Of a stretch of 34,357 nucleotides of DNA, positions 191 through 23,992 are shown piece by piece. Both the position numbers and the translations under genes were made by a program. Every line of letters starts with the position of its first letter. Position 1 is the stretch's first letter. The notes beneath the pieces were generated by a model. That model did not search any database. It had not been told where the DNA came from and saw only the letters and a list, made by a program, of their open reading frames with translations. Source of the DNA: Candidatus Zixiibacteriota bacterium (GTDB lineage Bacteria; Zixibacteria; MSB-5A5; RBG-16-43-9); the NCBI GenBank assembly GCA_029858245.1, contig JAOUFL010000001.1, positions 1 to 34,357 on the forward strand, in the 5' to 3' direction.

Positions 191-1819
191 ATGACAAACT
201 ATCGCATACCAAATCCGGTAAATGAACCAATCTACAGTTATGCTCCTGGCACAAAAGACCGGGAGAAGCTTAAAGCAGCTTTAAAAGAGCTGAAATCAAA
301 GCAGATTGAAGTTCCTTTAGTGATCGACGGAAAGGAAATTCAAACAGAGAAGAAGGTTAAAATCACCGCTCCGCATGACCATAGTTTAATCCTGGGTTAT
401 GCCTATCACGGCAGCAAAAAGGATATAGAATCAGCCATAGATTCTGCATTGAAAGCCCAGAAAAAATGGGCTGCCCTGCCCCTGCAGCAGCGCGCAGCTA
501 TCTTTCTGAAAGCAGCTGATTTGCTTGCCGGACCCTACCGCTATATAATGAATGCTGCCACCATGCTGGCTCACTCCAAAAATCCTTTCCAGTCAGAGAT
601 CGATGCGGTTTGCGAGCTGGCTGATTTCTTCAGGTTTAATGCTTATTATATGCAGATGATCTCTGATATTCAGCCGAACAATCCAGATCCGACTATCTGG
701 AATCTTATTGATTACAGGCCCCTGGAAGGATTTATTTTCGCGGTCACGCCTTTTAACTTCGTTTCCATAAACGGAAACCTTCCCACCGCCCCAGCTATGT
801 GGGGTAATGTCGCAGTCTGGAAACCCGCAAGAAGTGTACTGTACACCTCACACTTCATTATGAAGATATTAATCGAAGCAGGGCTGCCACCCGGTGCGAT
901 TAATTTTGTTACCGGTGATTCATCGGAGATCAGCGAAGTTATCTTGAACCATGAGAACCTTGCAGGAGTCCATTTCACCGGCTCGACCTCTGTATTTCAG
1001 AATATGTGGAAGACTATTGGAGAGAATATACCCAGATACAAGACCTATCCCAGAATAGTCGGCGAGACCGGAGGAAAGGATTTCATCTTCGTTCATAAAT
1101 CCTCTGTTCCTTCTCAGGTTGCCACTGCTATCACGCGCGGTGCCTTCGAATATCAGGGTCAGAAATGCTCTGCTGCCTCCCGGGCTTATATACCCAGGTC
1201 ACTCTGGAATGAGATAAGGGAAATACTTATAAAGCAGATCAAAGAGATCAAGATGGGTGACCCCTGTGATTTCTCCAACTTCATGAACGCTATTATCGAT
1301 AAAGGAGCTTTTAAAAGTATCAAGGAGTATATTGATTTTGCCAGAAGCGCATCCGATGCCAAGATCATTACAGGAGGTAACTGTGATGATTCCAGAGGAT
1401 ACTTTATCGATGCTACGGTGATTGAGACCACAAATCCCCAATTCAAGACTATGGTGGAGGAGATATTCGGACCGGTTATTACCATATATGTATATGAGGA
1501 CGAAGATTACGAGAAGACCTTACATCTTTGTGACCAGACCTCTCCCTATGCACTAACTGGTTCCATATTCTCAACGGATCGAAATGCCGTGGAGCTTGCT
1601 GAGACTATTTTGCGAAACGCTGCAGGTAATTTTTATATAAACGATAAGCCCACAGGGGCGGTAGTAGGCCAGCAGCCCTTTGGAGGTGCCAGAGCTTCAG
1701 GTACAAATGACAAAGCCGGCGCACTGCACAATATGATAAGATGGACCTCTCCCCGCACCATCAAGGAGAATTTTGTTCCTCCGGCTGACTTTAAATATCC
1801 ATTTATGATAGAGCCATAA
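191..1819 (+). CDS. pruA: L-glutamate gamma-semialdehyde (1-pyrroline-5-carboxylate) dehydrogenase, aldehyde dehydrogenase superfamily
   Basis: 542-aa ORF with GGAGG (181-185) 5 nt before the ATG. ALDH blocks FAVTPFNF, VGETGGKDF (catalytic Glu region) and EYQGQKCSA (catalytic Cys). C-terminal FGGARASGTNDKAG is typical of the long PruA/RocA-type P5CDH. Confidence 0.9.
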   Translation: MTNYRIPNPVNEPIYSYAPGTKDREKLKAALKELKSKQIEVPLVIDGKEIQTEKKVKITAPHDHSLILGYAYHGSKKDIESAIDSALKAQKKWAALPLQQRAAIFLKAADLLAGPYRYIMNAATMLAHSKNPFQSEIDAVCELADFFRFNAYYMQMISDIQPNNPDPTIWNLIDYRPLEGFIFAVTPFNFVSINGNLPTAPAMWGNVAVWKPARSVLYTSHFIMKILIEAGLPPGAINFVTGDSSEISEVILNHENLAGVHFTGSTSVFQNMWKTIGENIPRYKTYPRIVGETGGKDFIFVHKSSVPSQVATAITRGAFEYQGQKCSAASRAYIPRSLWNEIREILIKQIKEIKMGDPCDFSNFMNAIIDKGAFKSIKEYIDFARSASDAKIITGGNCDDSRGYFIDATVIETTNPQFKTMVEEIFGPVITIYVYEDEDYEKTLHLCDQTSPYALTGSIFSTDRNAVELAETILRNAAGNFYINDKPTGAVVGQQPFGGARASGTNDKAGALHNMIRWTSPRTIKENFVPPADFKYPFMIEP

Positions 1820-18478: not shown

Positions 18479-19132
18479 TCACAAGAAAAGTTTTTTTAAT
18501 GTTTTTTTACCTTCCTTACCCACCAGGGTTATTATGGTATCTTTCTCCCTGAGAATGGTATCTCCCTTAGGGATTATTACCTTACTTTCCCTTAAGGCTG
18601 CTATAATTATACAATCCTGAGGCAGACTTAGTTTGGAGATTTTCTTGTTCACCAGGGGAGAATCTGAAGATAGCTGGGTTTGGAAGATCTCCACTTCCCC
18701 TCCCCGCAGGGCTAAAAGCGGTATGAACATTCCTGCATCGATTTTCTCCTCGATCAGAGAACCGATGATTCGGGTGGCTGAAACTGTTGCATCCACCCCC
18801 AGACTCTGAAAGATCTCTTCATTCTTAGGGTCATTTACACGGGCAATGGTTTTGGGAATAAGATAAAGAATTTTTGCCATCTGACAGATGATCAGATTAT
18901 CCTGATCTGTCCCGGTCACTGCTACCAGGACATCAGCCCGGTTGACACCCATATCCATCAAAGTATCAAGCTCAGTCCCGTCTCCCAGGATAACCTGTTC
19001 CCCCCATTCCTCAGACAGCTTATTATATCTCTGCTGGTCTTTTTCAACTATCAGGACTTCATGTTTCTCCGACATAAGCAGCCGCGCCAGACTATAACCC
19101 ACCTGGCCACCACCTACAATGATTACATACAT
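18479..19132 (-). CDS. RCK protein, TrkA-N + TrkA-C domains (KtrA/TrkA-like K+ transport regulatory subunit)
   Basis: The N-terminal Rossmann motif MYVIIVGGGQVG (GxGxxG), the E at the end of the second strand, and a C-terminal TrkA-C-like segment (SPLVNKKISKLSLPQDCIIIAALR). SD AAGGAGAAGG upstream. Confidence 0.85.
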   Translation of the reverse strand: MYVIIVGGGQVGYSLARLLMSEKHEVLIVEKDQQRYNKLSEEWGEQVILGDGTELDTLMDMGVNRADVLVAVTGTDQDNLIICQMAKILYLIPKTIARVNDPKNEEIFQSLGVDATVSATRIIGSLIEEKIDAGMFIPLLALRGGEVEIFQTQLSSDSPLVNKKISKLSLPQDCIIIAALRESKVIIPKGDTILREKDTIITLVGKEGKKTLKKLFL

Positions 19133-19149
19133 TTTCCTTCTCCTTAAGA

Positions 19150-19554
19150 TTATGCTTTATCTGATAAAAACTCCTCAATTTTTTTAGCGGAATCTATGGT
19201 TGGGCAGATAATATTCAAACCCAGTTCCTTAAATGTCTGAGCCCTTTTGGAACCATAAACTCTCAATAATATCCTGGAGATTTTATATTTTTCCCTTACC
19301 AGTTGTACAGCCATGAGATTGGTATTATCGTCATTGGTTACAGCTATGAAAGCGTCTGCTTGTTCGATTCCAGCTTTTATTAAGGCCTCCTCATCTATCC
19401 CTATGCCGGAGATGGTTTTTCCGGTAAATTCTTTATCCAGTCTTTTAAAAGAACCTGGGTCCTGATCTATGACCGAAACCTCATCCCCTTTTGAAACAAG
19501 TTGAGAGGCAACTAGTGCGCCTACTCTACTGCATCCTAAAATAACTACCTTCAT
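19150..19554 (-). CDS. RCK N-domain-only protein (TrkA-N, NAD-binding)
   Basis: MKVVILGCSRVG Rossmann start and no TrkA-C domain. I prefer the ATG at 19554 (GAGGAGAGGAAGT immediately upstream) over the TTG at 19569. Confidence 0.8.
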   Translation of the reverse strand: MKVVILGCSRVGALVASQLVSKGDEVSVIDQDPGSFKRLDKEFTGKTISGIGIDEEALIKAGIEQADAFIAVTNDDNTNLMAVQLVREKYKISRILLRVYGSKRAQTFKELGLNIICPTIDSAKKIEEFLSDKA

Positions 19555-19575
19555 ACTTCCTCTCCTCAAAAAAGA

Positions 19576-20142
19576 TTAACCTTCCTCAGGCAGTTTGTCA
19601 ATAATAACCTCACAGGGTGCTTTTCTCAGTAAGGTATCAGTTGTTCTTCCCCACAGAGATTGAACACCACGTAGGCTGGTTCGCATTCCCAGAACAATAA
19701 CATCCGCCTGGTTATCCTTAGCTGCTCGTATTATCCCCTCACCTGCTTCTCTGGCTTTCTCGATTAGAAGAACTGGAGGCAGATGGTGAAGTTCTACGAT
19801 TTCTTTCCCCCGATTTAAAGCCTGATTCGCTTTTTCCTCTGCTTCAGGCATAGGAGCATCCAGGGGCATAGTACGGGGTATCTCTATCACATATGTTAAT
19901 ACAATCTCGGCTTGATGTTCGGCACCTAACCGGCATGCTAATTCTATCCCCCTTTCAGAATAGGGCTTTCCTGAGGTTGGTACCAAAATCCTTTTCAATG
20001 TCTCAACCGACCTGCGAGCCCTTGCTACTTCTGGCTTTATCTGAGGCGGAGGATGGAGCATCCACCATAAAATTCCACCCATGCTAATGGTGAAAATTAT
20101 AGCGATTATCACTCCTAATAACGATACCTGAACCTGGGTCAT
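19576..20142 (-). CDS. Membrane-anchored universal stress protein (UspA family)
   Basis: An N-terminal TM helix (LLGVIIAIIFTISMGGILWWML) followed by a Usp fold (RILVPTSG...; C-terminal ADVIVLGMRT..G....GRTTDTLLRKAPCEVIII). The start overlaps the upstream stop as ATGA. Confidence 0.75.
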   Translation of the reverse strand: MTQVQVSLLGVIIAIIFTISMGGILWWMLHPPPQIKPEVARARRSVETLKRILVPTSGKPYSERGIELACRLGAEHQAEIVLTYVIEIPRTMPLDAPMPEAEEKANQALNRGKEIVELHHLPPVLLIEKAREAGEGIIRAAKDNQADVIVLGMRTSLRGVQSLWGRTTDTLLRKAPCEVIIDKLPEEG

Positions 20143-20360
20143 TTTCTTCTTTTCCTTAGATATTTATATACAAATCTCAAGCGGTAGATTCCAATAAATA
20201 AAAAACCTCCTCCAATTAAAAGAGTGAGGATATAAAATCCAGTGAAAAAAGAACGAATAAGGATCACCCCTCCCAAGATGGTCATTAAAACGCTGGTTAT
20301 TATCTGATAATAATCCAGGCGGGTCAGGTGATCTGGCATGTCAACCATATGCTTTCTCAT
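20139..20360 (-). CDS. Small two-TM membrane protein, translationally coupled on both sides
   Basis: 73 aa with two hydrophobic helices and a basic tail (YLRKRRK). ATGA overlaps at 20357-20360 and 20139-20142. Confidence 0.6.
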   Translation of the reverse strand: MRKHMVDMPDHLTRLDYYQIITSVLMTILGGVILIRSFFTGFYILTLLIGGGFLFIGIYRLRFVYKYLRKRRK

Positions 20361-21934
20361 TTCAAATCCACCCTCTTCTTATCCCTTTCTGCTAAGGCAT
20401 TTTTATACTGCTCTAATAAATCGAATTCCTCAGCTGAGGATAACACCTCCATCTGCTGTTTTTCCCAATTATGTTCGATGCTTTTGAAAATGGGAAACTT
20501 TTGTGATTTTCGATACCAAACGTAATAACAGAAGCATAAGATAACCCAGGCCGGTCCGGCAATTCGTCCAATGCTGTGGGTCAAAACCACCATGAACAGT
20601 ATGGTGCCCACTCCCAGGGTTCCGATTACCCCTAAAACCGGGAATAGAACTTTTCTCCCTTTGTATTTCAGTTTGATATTCAAAGGCATCTTATAGGGTC
20701 TTGGAGTCCAGGGCTCGGAAAACCTTAGCCTGATCAGGGCTATGAATACCAGGGTATAACCTAAAGTAGCCCCAAAGGCATACATATTAGCCAGGGTATC
20801 CATAGCAGATGGAGTGAGGAAGGATAAGACTGTCTCAATTAACCCGATTCCGGAAAAGACCAGGATGGTACGAATGGGGGTCTTGTATTTAGGATGAACA
20901 GCATCAAACCACGAACTGATGATTCCGAACTTGCTGAGATAATAGGTTAACCTGGAGGAGCCTACTATGCCTGTGTTGGAGGAGATAAAAAGTATCAGTG
21001 CTCCTAAAGCCGCAGCAAATGGTCCGGCGATCAAGCCAACGAATGGAATGGCTTCAGCCAAAACTGCAATCGGATTGTCGATATTTTCGGCGAACACCTG
21101 CCAGGGTAAAATCCCCAGGCCTAAGGTGGAGAACGCCACAGCAAAGATGAACACCGTGAAGATCAAGGTAATGGAGGTACGGGGTATGACCGTAGCCGGT
21201 CGTCTGGTCTCCTGTGCCACCTCGGAGATCGATTCCAAACCCACAAAGGATATTATGGCAATGGAGGAGCCATACATAAAATTATGCAAAGAGGGAAACT
21301 GGGTGCTCCATTGATAAGCCAAAAGCTCAGGGTTCCAGGCAAATAGGAAAGCCAGGATGACAAGGGCTGATTCGGTAGCAATCACCACCGCTCCTATGAC
21401 CTCATTTACAAATGAAGATTCCCTTATTCCCCTGATATTAAGCCAGATCAAAAACCCTATTAGGATAAGTGTCTCCGCACACCAGACCGGATTGATGTTG
21501 TGAAAAGGACCAATAGTTGTGACGAATGAACTGATCTCCCGACCTATAACAAAAGGCATAAAGAAATTAAGATACCCGGCAGAAGCAGTAGCGAAAAGTG
21601 CGATGTCTATGGTGTAGTCTAAGATCAAAGCAGATCCAGCCACAAATCCCCAGAAATCGCCTAAGCCGCGCAGGGTAAAGTAGGACCCCCCGCCTGCCAC
21701 CGGATAAGAGGAGGCAAGTTCAGTATAGGCTAATCCGATCATTATATAGACGATACCAGCTAAGGCGAAAACCAGACTGGTTGCACCCTGGGCATAAGCC
21801 ATCACCAAGCCTAAAGCAACGTATGTATCCGCACCCACATCCGCAAATCCCCACATATAGGAGCCCCAGACCGAGACATCCCTCCTCAGCTCTGATTTTC
21901 CCTGGCCTATAGACTCTTTAATCTTCTCTCTCAT
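20357..21934 (-). CDS. APC-superfamily permease, paralog A (KimA-like candidate K+ or amino-acid transporter)
   Basis: 525 aa with about 12 TM helices and AA_permease_2-like blocks (YPVAGGGSYF, LILDYTIDIALF). A 52-aa run is identical to paralog B (WGSYMWGF...AYTELAS). Conserved cytosolic tail EEFDLLEQYKNALAERDKK. No SD before the ATG. Confidence 0.85.
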   Translation of the reverse strand: MREKIKESIGQGKSELRRDVSVWGSYMWGFADVGADTYVALGLVMAYAQGATSLVFALAGIVYIMIGLAYTELASSYPVAGGGSYFTLRGLGDFWGFVAGSALILDYTIDIALFATASAGYLNFFMPFVIGREISSFVTTIGPFHNINPVWCAETLILIGFLIWLNIRGIRESSFVNEVIGAVVIATESALVILAFLFAWNPELLAYQWSTQFPSLHNFMYGSSIAIISFVGLESISEVAQETRRPATVIPRTSITLIFTVFIFAVAFSTLGLGILPWQVFAENIDNPIAVLAEAIPFVGLIAGPFAAALGALILFISSNTGIVGSSRLTYYLSKFGIISSWFDAVHPKYKTPIRTILVFSGIGLIETVLSFLTPSAMDTLANMYAFGATLGYTLVFIALIRLRFSEPWTPRPYKMPLNIKLKYKGRKVLFPVLGVIGTLGVGTILFMVVLTHSIGRIAGPAWVILCFCYYVWYRKSQKFPIFKSIEHNWEKQQMEVLSSAEEFDLLEQYKNALAERDKKRVDLK

Positions 21935-21963
21935 GTCGGATTATTGTGAATCAGAACCTAAAC

Positions 21964-22023
21964 AAAAAATCGCCTTAAAAACGACTCCTCCAGCTCCCCA
22001 ACATCGGCAGGGGGTTAGGCGAC
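21964..22023 (-). promoter_or_regulatory. Internally deleted remnant of the c-di-AMP riboswitch; folds as a hairpin plus U6
   Basis: The minus strand reads GUCGCCUAACCCCCUGCCGAUGUUGGGGAGCUGGAGGAGUCGUUUUUAAGGCGAUUUUUU. The first ~45 nt align with the intact copy at 23952-23908, and the core blocks are missing. Confidence 0.6.
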
Positions 22024-22036
22024 TTATTAAAAATTG

Positions 22037-22064
22037 AATATATCGAGTGGGAGAAGATTGTCAA
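22037..22064 (-). promoter_or_regulatory. Putative promoter of paralog A (duplicate of the paralog B promoter)
   Basis: Minus strand: TTGACA (22064-22059), 16 nt, TATATT (22042-22037). Same boxes and spacing as 23992-23965. Confidence 0.55.
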
Positions 22065-22092
22065 TACAAAAAAATACTTACTGATTAATCTG

Positions 22093-22125
22093 AAAAAAAA
22101 GACTTGTTGAATTCACTGGTGAATT
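22093..22125 (-). terminator. Weak terminator-like signal after paralog B
   Basis: An AT-rich 6-bp stem (22110-22115/22120-22125), with the U8 tract (plus-strand A8 at 22093-22100) 9 nt away. Poor geometry. Confidence 0.2.
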
Positions 22126-22140
22126 GGATTAAAGCTTTCC

Positions 22141-23715
22141 TCACTTTCTCCTTTTCTTATCTCTTTCAGTTAGAGCATTTTTATACTGTTCTAATAAATC
22201 ATATTCCTCAGCCGAAGTTAAAACCTCAATCTGCTCTTTCTCCCAGTCATGTTTTATACTCTTAAAAACAGGTAAACCCTCTTTTTTTCTATACCAAGCA
22301 TAATATATAAAACAGAGCAGAATCCAGGCAGGTCCGGCTATCCGCCCTATGGTATGAGTGAGAACTACCATAAAAAGAATAGTGGAAACTCCAAGCATAC
22401 CGATTACCCCCAGCACCGGGAAGTCGACTTTTCTTCCCTTATACCCTATTTTTAAATTTAAAGGCATCTTATAGGGTCTGGGGGTGTAAGGGTCTGAAAA
22501 TCTAAGCTTTATCAAAGCAACAAAGACCAGAGTATATCCTAAGGTAGCGCCAAAGGCATACATATTCCCCAGGGTGCCCATGGCTGAAGGAGTAAGAAAA
22601 GATAGAACAGTTTCGATTATCCCTATGAAAGAGAAAATAACAATTGTCCGCATAGGGGTTCTGAATTTCGAATGAATCATATTAAACCATTTGCTTATTA
22701 TGCCAAATCCGCTCAAGGAGTAGGTAAGTCTTGAAGCACCCATCACGCCGGTATTAGCGGAGATGAAAAGTATTAGTGCACCTAAAGCAGCGGCAAAAGG
22801 ACCTGCCATAAATCCAATTATAGGAATAGCCTTAGCTAATATAGCTATGGGATTATCCATATGTTCGGCAAACTCCTGCCAGGGTAAAACACCTAAGCCC
22901 AGGGTGGAGAAGGCAACTGCAAAGATAAAAACTGTAAAGATCAAGGTCAAAGAGGTACGAGGTATAATAGTTGCTGGTCTTCTGGTCTCCTGAGCCGCCT
23001 GGGAGATTGATTCCAATCCAACAAAGGAGATAATAGCCAGGGAGGAACCATACATAAAATTATGAAAGGAGGGGAACTGAGTTTTCCATTGATGGGCTAA
23101 GAGCTCCGGCCTCCAGGCAAAGAGAAATCCCATTATAACCAAGGCAGATTCTGTGATTATCACTATCGCCCCGATCACTTCATTCAGAAAAGAAGATTCT
23201 TTTATGCCCCGAACGTTAATTAATATCAAAAGCGAAATTAAAACCAAGGTCTCTATACACCAGAAGTAGTTGACATTATGCAGTGGCCCGACGGATATAA
23301 CAAAACTATCTATGCTTATTCCTAAGATGTAAGGCATAAAGAAGTTCAGATAGCCGGCTGAGGCAGTTGCAAAAAGGGCAATGTCTATGGTGTAATCTAA
23401 AAGTAATGCAGAACCACCCATAAACCCCCAGAAATCACCTAAGCCACGTAGGGTAAAGTATGGTCCTCCTCCAGCCACAGGATAGGCTGAGGCAAGCTCG
23501 GTATAAGCTAATCCGATCATTATATAGACGATACCGGCGAGGGCAAAGACCAGACTGGTTGCACCCTGTGCATAAGCCATTACCAGACCTAGGGCGACAT
23601 AGGTATCCGCACCCACATCCGCAAACCCCCACATATACGAGCCCCAGATTGTAACATCCCTTCTGAGTTCGTTTTTACCGTCCACTGGTGCAATGTTCTG
23701 GTTATTCTTCTCCAT
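22141..23715 (-). CDS. APC-superfamily permease, paralog B (KimA-like candidate), riboswitch-controlled
   Basis: Same architecture as paralog A. I prefer the ATG at 23715 (GGAGG at 23727-23723, 7 nt upstream) over the track start at 23745, whose first codons contain that SD. Confidence 0.85.
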   Translation of the reverse strand: MEKNNQNIAPVDGKNELRRDVTIWGSYMWGFADVGADTYVALGLVMAYAQGATSLVFALAGIVYIMIGLAYTELASAYPVAGGGPYFTLRGLGDFWGFMGGSALLLDYTIDIALFATASAGYLNFFMPYILGISIDSFVISVGPLHNVNYFWCIETLVLISLLILINVRGIKESSFLNEVIGAIVIITESALVIMGFLFAWRPELLAHQWKTQFPSFHNFMYGSSLAIISFVGLESISQAAQETRRPATIIPRTSLTLIFTVFIFAVAFSTLGLGVLPWQEFAEHMDNPIAILAKAIPIIGFMAGPFAAALGALILFISANTGVMGASRLTYSLSGFGIISKWFNMIHSKFRTPMRTIVIFSFIGIIETVLSFLTPSAMGTLGNMYAFGATLGYTLVFVALIKLRFSDPYTPRPYKMPLNLKIGYKGRKVDFPVLGVIGMLGVSTILFMVVLTHTIGRIAGPAWILLCFIYYAWYRKKEGLPVFKSIKHDWEKEQIEVLTSAEEYDLLEQYKNALTERDKKRRK

Positions 23716-23775: not shown

Positions 23776-23805
23776 AAAAAAAGACCAGAGGAAACCTCTT
23801 GGTCT
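23776..23805 (-). terminator. Intrinsic terminator forming the riboswitch expression platform
   Basis: Minus strand: AGACCAAGAGG-UUU-CCUCUGGUCU (10 bp, one bulged A) followed by U7. Confidence 0.8.
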
Positions 23806-23829
23806 AAAAGATTTTTTAGTTCCTCTCTC

Positions 23830-23952
23830 CTTACGCCTACGAAGTTAGCTGACGGGCTCGGGTCAAGAGATAACCCTATTCGCCTCTGGCGAAATTCGCC
23901 CCAATTACTTGGGTCCTCCGTCTCCCCGCCTTCGGCGGGGGGTTAGGCGATT
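23830..23952 (-). promoter_or_regulatory. ydaO-yuaA (kimA/ktrA leader) class c-di-AMP riboswitch aptamer
   Basis: The minus strand contains AAUCGCCUAA, CCCCGCC-GAA-GGCGGGG, GGAGGACCCA, UGGGGCGAAU and GACCCGAGCCCGUCAGCUAACUUCGUAGGCGU. P1 is CGCCUA (23949-23944) / UAGGCG (23839-23834). Confidence 0.8.
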
Positions 23953-23964
23953 TATTAAAAATTT

Positions 23965-23992
23965 AATATAAATATTAAAAAAGAATTGTCAA
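23965..23992 (-). promoter_or_regulatory. Putative promoter of the riboswitch-led transcript
   Basis: Minus strand: TTGACA (23992-23987), 16 nt, TATATT (23970-23965). Confidence 0.55.

Follow-up and report, generated by a model that had tools for sequence, protein, structure and literature searches.

Probable decay of a c-di-AMP riboswitch in front of one of two tandem permease genes in a Zixibacteria genome

Results

Organization of the tandem permease locus

The analysed stretch of DNA (34,357 nucleotides, hereafter the window) is a single contig of a metagenome-assembled genome of a Candidatus Zixiibacteriota bacterium (G000; 2.2 Mb, 297 contigs, 90% complete). The operon lies on the minus strand and is ordered, according to Pfam assignments, as c-di-AMP riboswitch, APC-family permease, 73-aa protein (p73), Usp, TrkA_N and TrkA_N+C; among the relatives compared, the gene order after the permease is kept throughout the order. 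In the single-copy relatives of the same family (G001, G003, G005 and G006), urocanase is divergent from riboswitch-B-p73-Usp-RCK-OmpH. The window genome carries an additional permease gene, A (20357-21934), which lies between B (22141-23715) and p73. The features of the locus are as follows.

18479 to 20360, minus strand: genes for the 73-aa protein, Usp, TrkA_N and TrkA_N+C (Pfam), which depend on transcription through leader A
20357 to 21934, minus strand: paralog A, APC-family permease with an intact reading frame (525 aa; Pfam AA_permease_2, 6e-38; 'A' clade, 100/100 support)
21935 to 21963, minus strand: residual 5' UTR of gene A, 29 nt, without a Shine-Dalgarno sequence (read from the sequence)
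21964 to 22031, minus strand: c-di-AMP aptamer remnant (5' half), which aligns collinearly to the intact leader of L095
22037 to 22064, minus strand: promoter P_A, TTGACA (22064-22059), 16-nt spacer, TATATT (22042-22037) (promoter scan, 11/12 consensus positions)
22075 to 22143, minus strand: relic of the p73 5' end ('p73 prime', ~70 nt, in the 69-nt spacer after B), found by local alignment to p73 of relatives
22141 to 23715, minus strand: paralog B, APC-family permease (524 aa from the ATG at 23715, which a Shine-Dalgarno sequence precedes)
23776 to 23992, minus strand: leader B, intact, with promoter (23992-23965), RF00379 aptamer (23959-23818) and intrinsic terminator with U7 (23805-23776) (Rfam, promoter and terminator scans)

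Paralog B is 90% identical to its counterpart in G001 and 88% to that in G006. For paralog A, the comparison was made with a metagenome contig (L095/L096) holding a syntenic operon of the same family, in which a single A-type permease stands behind an intact RF00379 aptamer (70.9 bits); the Usp, TrkA_N+C and OmpH proteins of this contig are 90%, 92% and 75% identical to those of the window. The 525-aa open reading frame of paralog A had been described as fully intact, and it is both intact and conserved: its core shares 94% of amino acids with L095_A at 59% identity of four-fold sites, a ratio that indicates purifying selection. Usp and both RCK genes are 83-92% identical to those of G001, G006 and L095, and the 73-aa protein is less conserved (56-71% identity to same-family relatives). 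The GC3 of paralog A is 0.52 versus 0.42 for B, with an overall window GC of 0.41; L095_A is likewise GC3-rich (0.50 versus 0.43 for its locus), so the elevated GC3 appears to be a property of the A clade and no sign of recent transfer.

Both permeases match AA_permease_2 and TIGR00909, and the nearest solved structures are amino-acid transporters of the CAT and ApcT types. A KimA-like identity was considered and rejected, as the closest structures and NCBIfam models are those of CAT/ApcT/BcaP-type amino-acid transporters, with no KimA match. The genome encodes a diadenylate cyclase, so the c-di-AMP signal exists in this organism. Leader B is the only RF00379 match in the genome (98 bits, E 3e-22, model positions 1-134).

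The leader of paralog A is collinear with an intact orthologous leader

The preliminary description of the locus held that the leader of paralog A reuses the promoter of leader B, and this is the case. P_A (22064-22037) and P_B (23992-23965) have identical -35 and -10 hexamers and a 16-nt spacer, and each agrees with the consensus at 11/12 positions; the sigma-70-type assignment is a consensus match only (hexamers near consensus, spacing of 16-18 nt). The predicted transcription start of P_A lies near 22030, and its flanks, TTTGTATTGACAA and ATATATTCAAT, are common to all leaders of this family. The hexamers themselves are unchanged. The promoter was not significantly more conserved than the aptamer remnant (4/40 versus 3/18 invariant columns changed; Fisher p = 0.67), and this test does not demonstrate continued selection on P_A.

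Pairwise blastn aligns leaders A and B over 85 nt (78% identity, E 7e-16). Their local alignment score of 78 stands far above the values obtained in 500 shuffles (19.6 ± 2.6, maximum 37), so the similarity is real and not the low-complexity AT noise that had been named as a possible refutation. The comparison with L095 extends further: from the -35 flank to GGCGA-T6, leader A and the intact leader of L095 run collinear for 110 nt (79% identity, E 9e-21), and the block ATATATTCAATTTTTAATAAGTCGCCTAA of 29 nt is identical in the two. The element of leader A designated GUCGUUUUUAAGGCGAUUUUUU corresponds to ACCAAUUUUUGAGGCGAAUUUUUU in L095, which is the next aptamer segment. The parts of the remnant, all on the minus strand, are as follows.

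22023 to 22015: 5' strand of P1, GUCGCCUAA
22014 to 21996: P2, degraded
21994 to 21986: 5' strand of P3, GCUGGAGGA
21985 to 21970: degenerate ACC...GGGGCGAAU block, which reads GUCGUUUUUAAGGCGA
21969 to 21964: U6 (a T6 run), a probable deletion scar

The remnant (22031-21964) spans roughly positions 1-62 of the 134 of the model. This changes the anatomy that had been proposed. About 45 nt of the riboswitch had been taken to be shared, followed by a jump; the homology is real, but it reaches 21964 and covers ~70 nt of the leader, and the sequence placed after the jump, GUCGUUUUUAAGGCGAUUUUUU, is a degenerate copy collinear with ACCAAUUUUUGAGGCGAAUUUUUU of the intact leader. Nor is the loss that of an internal ~90-nt core containing ACCCA; the 'ACC' and 'GGGGCGAAU' blocks are present in degenerate form. 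The collinearity through ACCAAUUUUUGAGGCGAAUUUUUU also rules out GGCGA as the 3' strand of P1 brought in by an internal core deletion. What leader A has lost is the 3' half of the aptamer together with the terminator. Its alignment to both L095 and leader B stops at GGCGA-U6 (approximately model position 62/134), and the following helix, the rest of the 3' half including the CAGCUAAC block, the 3' strand of P1 and the terminator hairpin are missing. In RF00379 both halves are closed by pairing of the 5' CGCC with a 3' GGCG located after CAGCUAAC, and leader A has no such closure. Likewise, 21935-22031 contains no counterpart of the expression platform, the AGACC...GGUCU-U7 hairpin that leader B shares with all relatives. 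The leader is collinear with an intact orthologous leader at the same genomic position, and judged from these alignments the remnant is a pseudogene of the RF00379 class and not a member of it.

The remnant is not recognised by the covariance model and has lost conserved positions

With the RF00379 model (gathering threshold of 38 bits), no match was found in 21800-22300 at E<=10, and the isolated 73-nt remnant gave none at E<=10 even in truncated mode. The equivalent 73 nt of leader B, used as a positive control, were recovered as a 3'-truncated match (25.4 bits, E 1e-4, model positions 1-59). The expected outcome of this search had been a failure or a partial match; it was a failure, and it also speaks against the suggestion that a complete aptamer might still be present. 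Within the 5' half, GGAGGA[AC]CC and GGGGCGAAU are nearly invariant among 25 intact aptamers of the clade, whereas the remnant carries GGAGGAGUC and AAGGCGAU at these places; thus the GGAGGA-ACC and GGGGYGAAU motifs kept by the 25 as a consensus are not preserved here. The first hairpin is degraded, as had been observed, with the upper stem of P2 lost and two uncompensated changes in P2. The mutated motifs and uncompensated changes indicate that the deletion is not brand new. Leader A as a whole folds no more stably than its shuffles (z = 0.16).

The RF00379 aptamer is pseudo-symmetric, and each of its two ligand pockets requires both halves; the remnant is therefore predicted to be unable to bind c-di-AMP. 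We consider it extremely improbable that a shortened functional sensor, such as a single-site aptamer, remains in leader A. Such a sensor would have to build on the retained 5' part of the aptamer, in which GGAGGA and GGCGA are still found. However, model positions ~63-134 are missing along with the P1 3' strand and the CAGCUAAC block, near-invariant positions are mutated, the leader is not unusually structured, and the covariance model found nothing at E<=10 in context or in truncated mode while its positive control succeeded.

The absence of a Shine-Dalgarno sequence before the ATG at 21934, also remarked on in the preliminary description, is genuine, but it is no sign of decay, since A-type orthologues with intact riboswitches lack one at this spacing as well. 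Closer relatives with the same remnant were not found in the nine family genomes or in the genome and metagenome contig collections, and nothing directly relevant was found in the literature on riboswitch remnants.

A single deletion between two T-runs probably removed the sensor

In L095, GGCGAATTTTTT is located at 2676-2687 and the T6 of the terminator at 2810-2815. In all leaders, the terminator T6-7 run is followed by [CGA]TTT. The T6 of leader A is followed by GTTTAG, and its tail, TTTTTTGTTTAG, is identical (12/12) to the tail of the G001_B terminator, unlike the aptamer-internal U-run of L095, which is followed by CCCCC. The distance from the T-run to the ATG is also similar, 29 nt in leader A versus 31 nt in the A-type leaders of the sister family. 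From this agreement of tail and distance with those of terminators we infer one T6-to-T6 deletion, in which the U-run inside the aptamer (after GGCGAA) was probably fused to the terminator U-tract to give the T6 scar. The deletion was probably a single event of ~115-130 nt; its length would be 128 nt in L095 coordinates (2688-2815) and ~115 nt measured on leader B, with the 3' breakpoint and the T-run mechanism resting on short matches.

The remaining hairpin is unlikely to act as an efficient terminator

The residual leader had been reported to pair and then to run into U6. The fold predicted for the nascent RNA, from the start to the U-run, agrees: AAGUCGCCU pairs with AGGCGAUUU in a 9-bp helix (P~0.95, -19 kcal/mol), the UCGCC:GGCGA pairing has P~0.95, and U6 is next. 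The U-run abuts the stem directly, and the hairpin is followed by U6-G-U3. In this respect leader A resembles intrinsic terminators, which likewise consist of a GC-containing helix and an immediate U-run. It differs from them in the loop, which is branched and 46 nt long compared with 3-8 nt, and in that the same arrangement occurs inside the functional aptamers of relatives. The same CGCC:GGCG hairpin followed by (A)U5-6 is predicted with P>=0.94 in the nascent RNA of the intact aptamers of L095, G003 and G005. The terminator scan called no site in 21935-22140 or after B.

These observations bear on the proposal, made in the preliminary description, that the residue forms a ligand-independent, terminator-like hairpin. 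If it were a working constitutive attenuator, the hairpin between the P1 5' strand and GGCGA, together with U6, would stop most transcripts from P_A and from B, and A with Usp/RCK would be expressed at a low fixed level, or a short RNA of ~65 nt would be produced. The predicted stability of the 9-bp AAGUCGCCU/AGGCGAUUU helix and the U-rich sequence directly 3' of it speak for such a role; moreover, if the U-run is terminator-derived, it has retained its native tail, TTTTTTGTTTAG. Against this stand the large branched loop that the helix closes, the negative terminator scan and the stability of the whole leader, which does not exceed that of shuffles. When the polymerase arrives at the U-run, the transcripts of the intact L095, G003 and G005 aptamers are equivalent to that of the remnant, and they must be read through there if the riboswitch is to function, which makes efficient termination at leader A unlikely. 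Furthermore, transcripts for A, p73, Usp and the two RCK genes, from either P_A or P_B, all cross the hairpin; no further strong promoter serves these five genes, each of which is intact and conserved. Taken together, we regard a constitutive attenuator as unlikely, along with the low fixed expression or short RNA that it would entail, and the terminator-like role first suggested is doubtful; partial attenuation at the hairpin and U6-G-U3 may still occur.

Paralogs A and B diverged long ago, and both clades retain intact aptamers

The A and B proteins are 79% identical, and their four-fold sites are saturated (36% identical). The A clade (100/100 support) is present in two Zixibacteria families; within it, the genes of the second family form a group of their own (91/97) that excludes L095_A and G000_A, a topology that fits vertical descent. 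By these measures A and B are ancient paralogs and not the recent local duplicate that the preliminary description had implied.

A-type orthologues with intact aptamers were found at at least 12 loci in two families (including L095, G016, G018, G019, G029 and several metagenome loci), and the B-type (upstream) genes have an intact aptamer of their own in all examined cases. Since both paralog clades keep members with an intact aptamer, the presence of two aptamers is the older state, which settles the question of whether one or two were ancestral. The undecayed state of the arrangement is represented by G027, in which sister-family tandem permeases (L037, G027:C37, 2384-4519) each stand behind an intact aptamer (90.8 and 83.5 bits). 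The sister family has five other tandem loci at which different, larger deletions have taken both promoter and aptamer from the A leader, and the spacer of 80-115 nt consists of a decayed p73 start and a terminator tail. The sequence 'CAAGACC...GGTCTTTTT' in these intergenic regions had initially been taken for a collapsed terminator and was re-read as this combination of p73 relic and terminator tail.

A recent horizontal acquisition of A from the sister family (90-92% identity, higher GC3) was considered, and is weakened by the existence of a same-family A-type orthologue with the same elevated GC3, which is also closer at four-fold sites (0.59 versus 0.46-0.51), as well as by the separate clade formed by the sister-family A genes. 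Paralog A is not a mosaic gene either; it is A-type along its whole length (71 A-only sites versus 9).

Several other features were noted in the leaders and flanks of relatives. In L095 (364-2476), two ORFs of 525 and 181 aa without Pfam matches lie between urocanase and the riboswitch promoter, where they occupy the place that paralog B has in the window genome. GC-rich palindromes of 100-200 nt are located between riboswitch terminator and permease start in L095 (2816-3012) and in the L041 and L043 leaders; they look like lineage-specific repeat-element insertions into the 5' UTR. G003 has an orphan copy (...ATATATTCAATCTTCAATAAATCGCTTAATTCCG...) of the family-type promoter together with the 5' leader of the riboswitch (L179 ~1480-1560, minus strand; G003:C11:4950-5030); its neighbours are a HerA-like ATPase gene and the 3' end of lon. 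Unlike P_A, this copy has a destroyed -35 hexamer (ATAACA); it has no RF00379 match and no downstream gene, and seems to be another fossil of a riboswitch leader in this family.

A truncated copy of p73 marks the junction between the two units

In single-copy relatives, the ATG of p73 overlaps the permease stop codon. In the window, a truncated p73 copy (22143-22075) starts with a GTG, which overlaps the B stop codon, and stands directly upstream of the P_A flank, as expected at a tandem-duplication junction. It is identical to p73 of G001, G005 and L095 at 48/61, 53/68 and 46/66 positions, respectively, and none of 1000 shuffles reached any of these scores. The corresponding search upstream of the L095 promoter was not significant (23/1000 shuffles reached the score, the same as for the control). 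The relic marks the right-hand end of a first repeat unit, which extends from ~10-15 nt upstream of the -35 hexamer to ~70 nt into p73. Its position between B and P_A thus gives a duplication-type junction and supports the proposed outline, in which gene, promoter and leader were duplicated in tandem and one copy then lost its sensor. Junction, promoter copy and sensor loss all hold; the recent, local character of the duplication does not.

The relic is ~78% identical to p73 of relatives and is far better preserved than the A-B synonymous sites. On this sequence comparison, either the junction is younger than the A/B split and arose by later recombination between A- and B-type units, whose loci share one site in sister genera, or the relic is under constraint. 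According to the first reading, the present tandem is not the product of a duplication in place with later divergence; a unit of B type (comprising promoter, riboswitch, B and the start of p73) would have been joined to an A-type unit from a related lineage, with the leader deletion occurring at or after joining. Within one family, the A-only (L095), B-only (G001, G003, G005 and G006) and tandem (G000) states share one chromosomal site, which speaks for such a recombination. The relic, which is significant against 0/1000 shuffles despite the saturation of A-B synonymous sites, is also closer to p73 of G001 and G005 than to the p73 of G000 itself, and the full p73 of G000 is nearest to that of L095 (71% versus 56-64%). 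On the other hand, no donor is identifiable, sister-family tandems keep an 'ATGAG...' p73-like start after the upstream gene and the G030 relic is significant, which suggests one old shared junction, and the relic may be decaying more slowly owing to an inverted repeat that is conserved near the p73 5' end. We consider joining by later recombination a serious possibility, although we lean somewhat against it.

The inverted repeat, TTAAATTC-N6-GAATTTAA, lies at the p73 start (first ~40 nt), just after the permease stop, in L041, L042, L043, L044 and L095, and takes the form AATTCAC-CA-GTGAATT in the relic (window 22100-22125, minus strand). It is kept across genera although the encoded residues vary, and may be an intercistronic RNA hairpin.

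An assembly artefact, in which either the tandem or the leader deletion results from a chimeric contig of two populations, might be feared in a genome of 297 contigs, given that both the A and the B type are known from this site in related populations. A chimera would, however, join at shared sequence and give one hybrid copy. In the window, family-type sequence lies on either side of A, the junctions (p73 relic/promoter and GGCGA-T6/UTR) are away from long shared repeats, and comparable tandem arrays exist in five other genomes. An artefact is therefore very improbable.

Discussion

The reading that we favour as likely is that leader A is a decayed c-di-AMP (ydaO-type, RF00379) riboswitch, and that A and p73/Usp/RCK are now free of c-di-AMP control from P_A. 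An ancestral c-di-AMP riboswitch would once have controlled the A-type permease gene, and one deletion of ~115-130 nt, from the U-run inside the aptamer to the terminator U-tract, would have removed the aptamer 3' half and the terminator hairpin. Left behind are the promoter, the P1 5' strand, P2, the P3 5' strand and the degenerate ACC...GGCGAAU segment, with no dedicated terminator; the UCGCC:GGCGA hairpin with U6 would be a by-product of aptamer sequence. Paralog A and the 73-aa/Usp/RCK genes would then be transcribed without c-di-AMP control from the surviving sigma-70-type P_A, the activity of which is predicted. Read-through from P_B, which is under riboswitch control, probably reaches them as well, as there is no canonical terminator after B. 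The outline of the preliminary description, a riboswitch remnant behind a duplicated promoter with its sensor lost, therefore survives, while the extent of the deletion and the role of GGCGA had been mis-mapped.

The remnant resembles the c-di-AMP riboswitches of the ydaO/yuaA class (RF00379) in its promoter-proximal leader, P1 5' strand, P2, P3 5' strand and GGCGA motif, and it aligns collinearly with intact class members that head operons of the same type (leader B and the A-type leader of L095). It differs from them in lacking the aptamer 3' half, the P1 3' strand and the terminator, in its mutated conserved positions and in being unrecognised by the covariance model. The locus can also be compared to tandem arrays in which only the first gene has a leader (operonisation after duplication), such as the five sister-family loci that keep the upstream riboswitch and have lost the A leader. 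In contrast to those loci, from which promoter and whole aptamer are gone, a consensus promoter and half an aptamer survive here, so A may be c-di-AMP-independent rather than merely co-transcribed.

It is conceivable that the loss of sensor and terminator, with a consensus promoter retained, was adaptive, uncoupling A and the 73-aa/Usp/RCK genes from c-di-AMP while B was kept under the riboswitch, although we think this rather unlikely. If true, deletion of a riboswitch would have led to regulatory subfunctionalisation of two ancient transporter paralogs, and the independent losses of the second aptamer in tandem arrays of the sister family would point to a selective pressure that recurs, or to selection acting against leader repeats, which favour pop-out of the upstream copy.

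Most inferences on the gain and loss of riboswitches start from whether one is present or absent. In leader A, the decay of a c-di-AMP riboswitch can be followed at single-base level by comparison with an intact orthologue, and sister lineages show parallel losses. It is a tidy, well-documented example of a known event, the decay of a regulatory RNA, and involves no new mechanism. The case illustrates a route by which a tandem paralog can leave second-messenger control, and it shows annotators that a riboswitch pseudogene with its promoter can escape covariance models. For this lineage, the prediction is that permease A and Usp/RCK would be expressed regardless of c-di-AMP, while permease B would be repressed by it.
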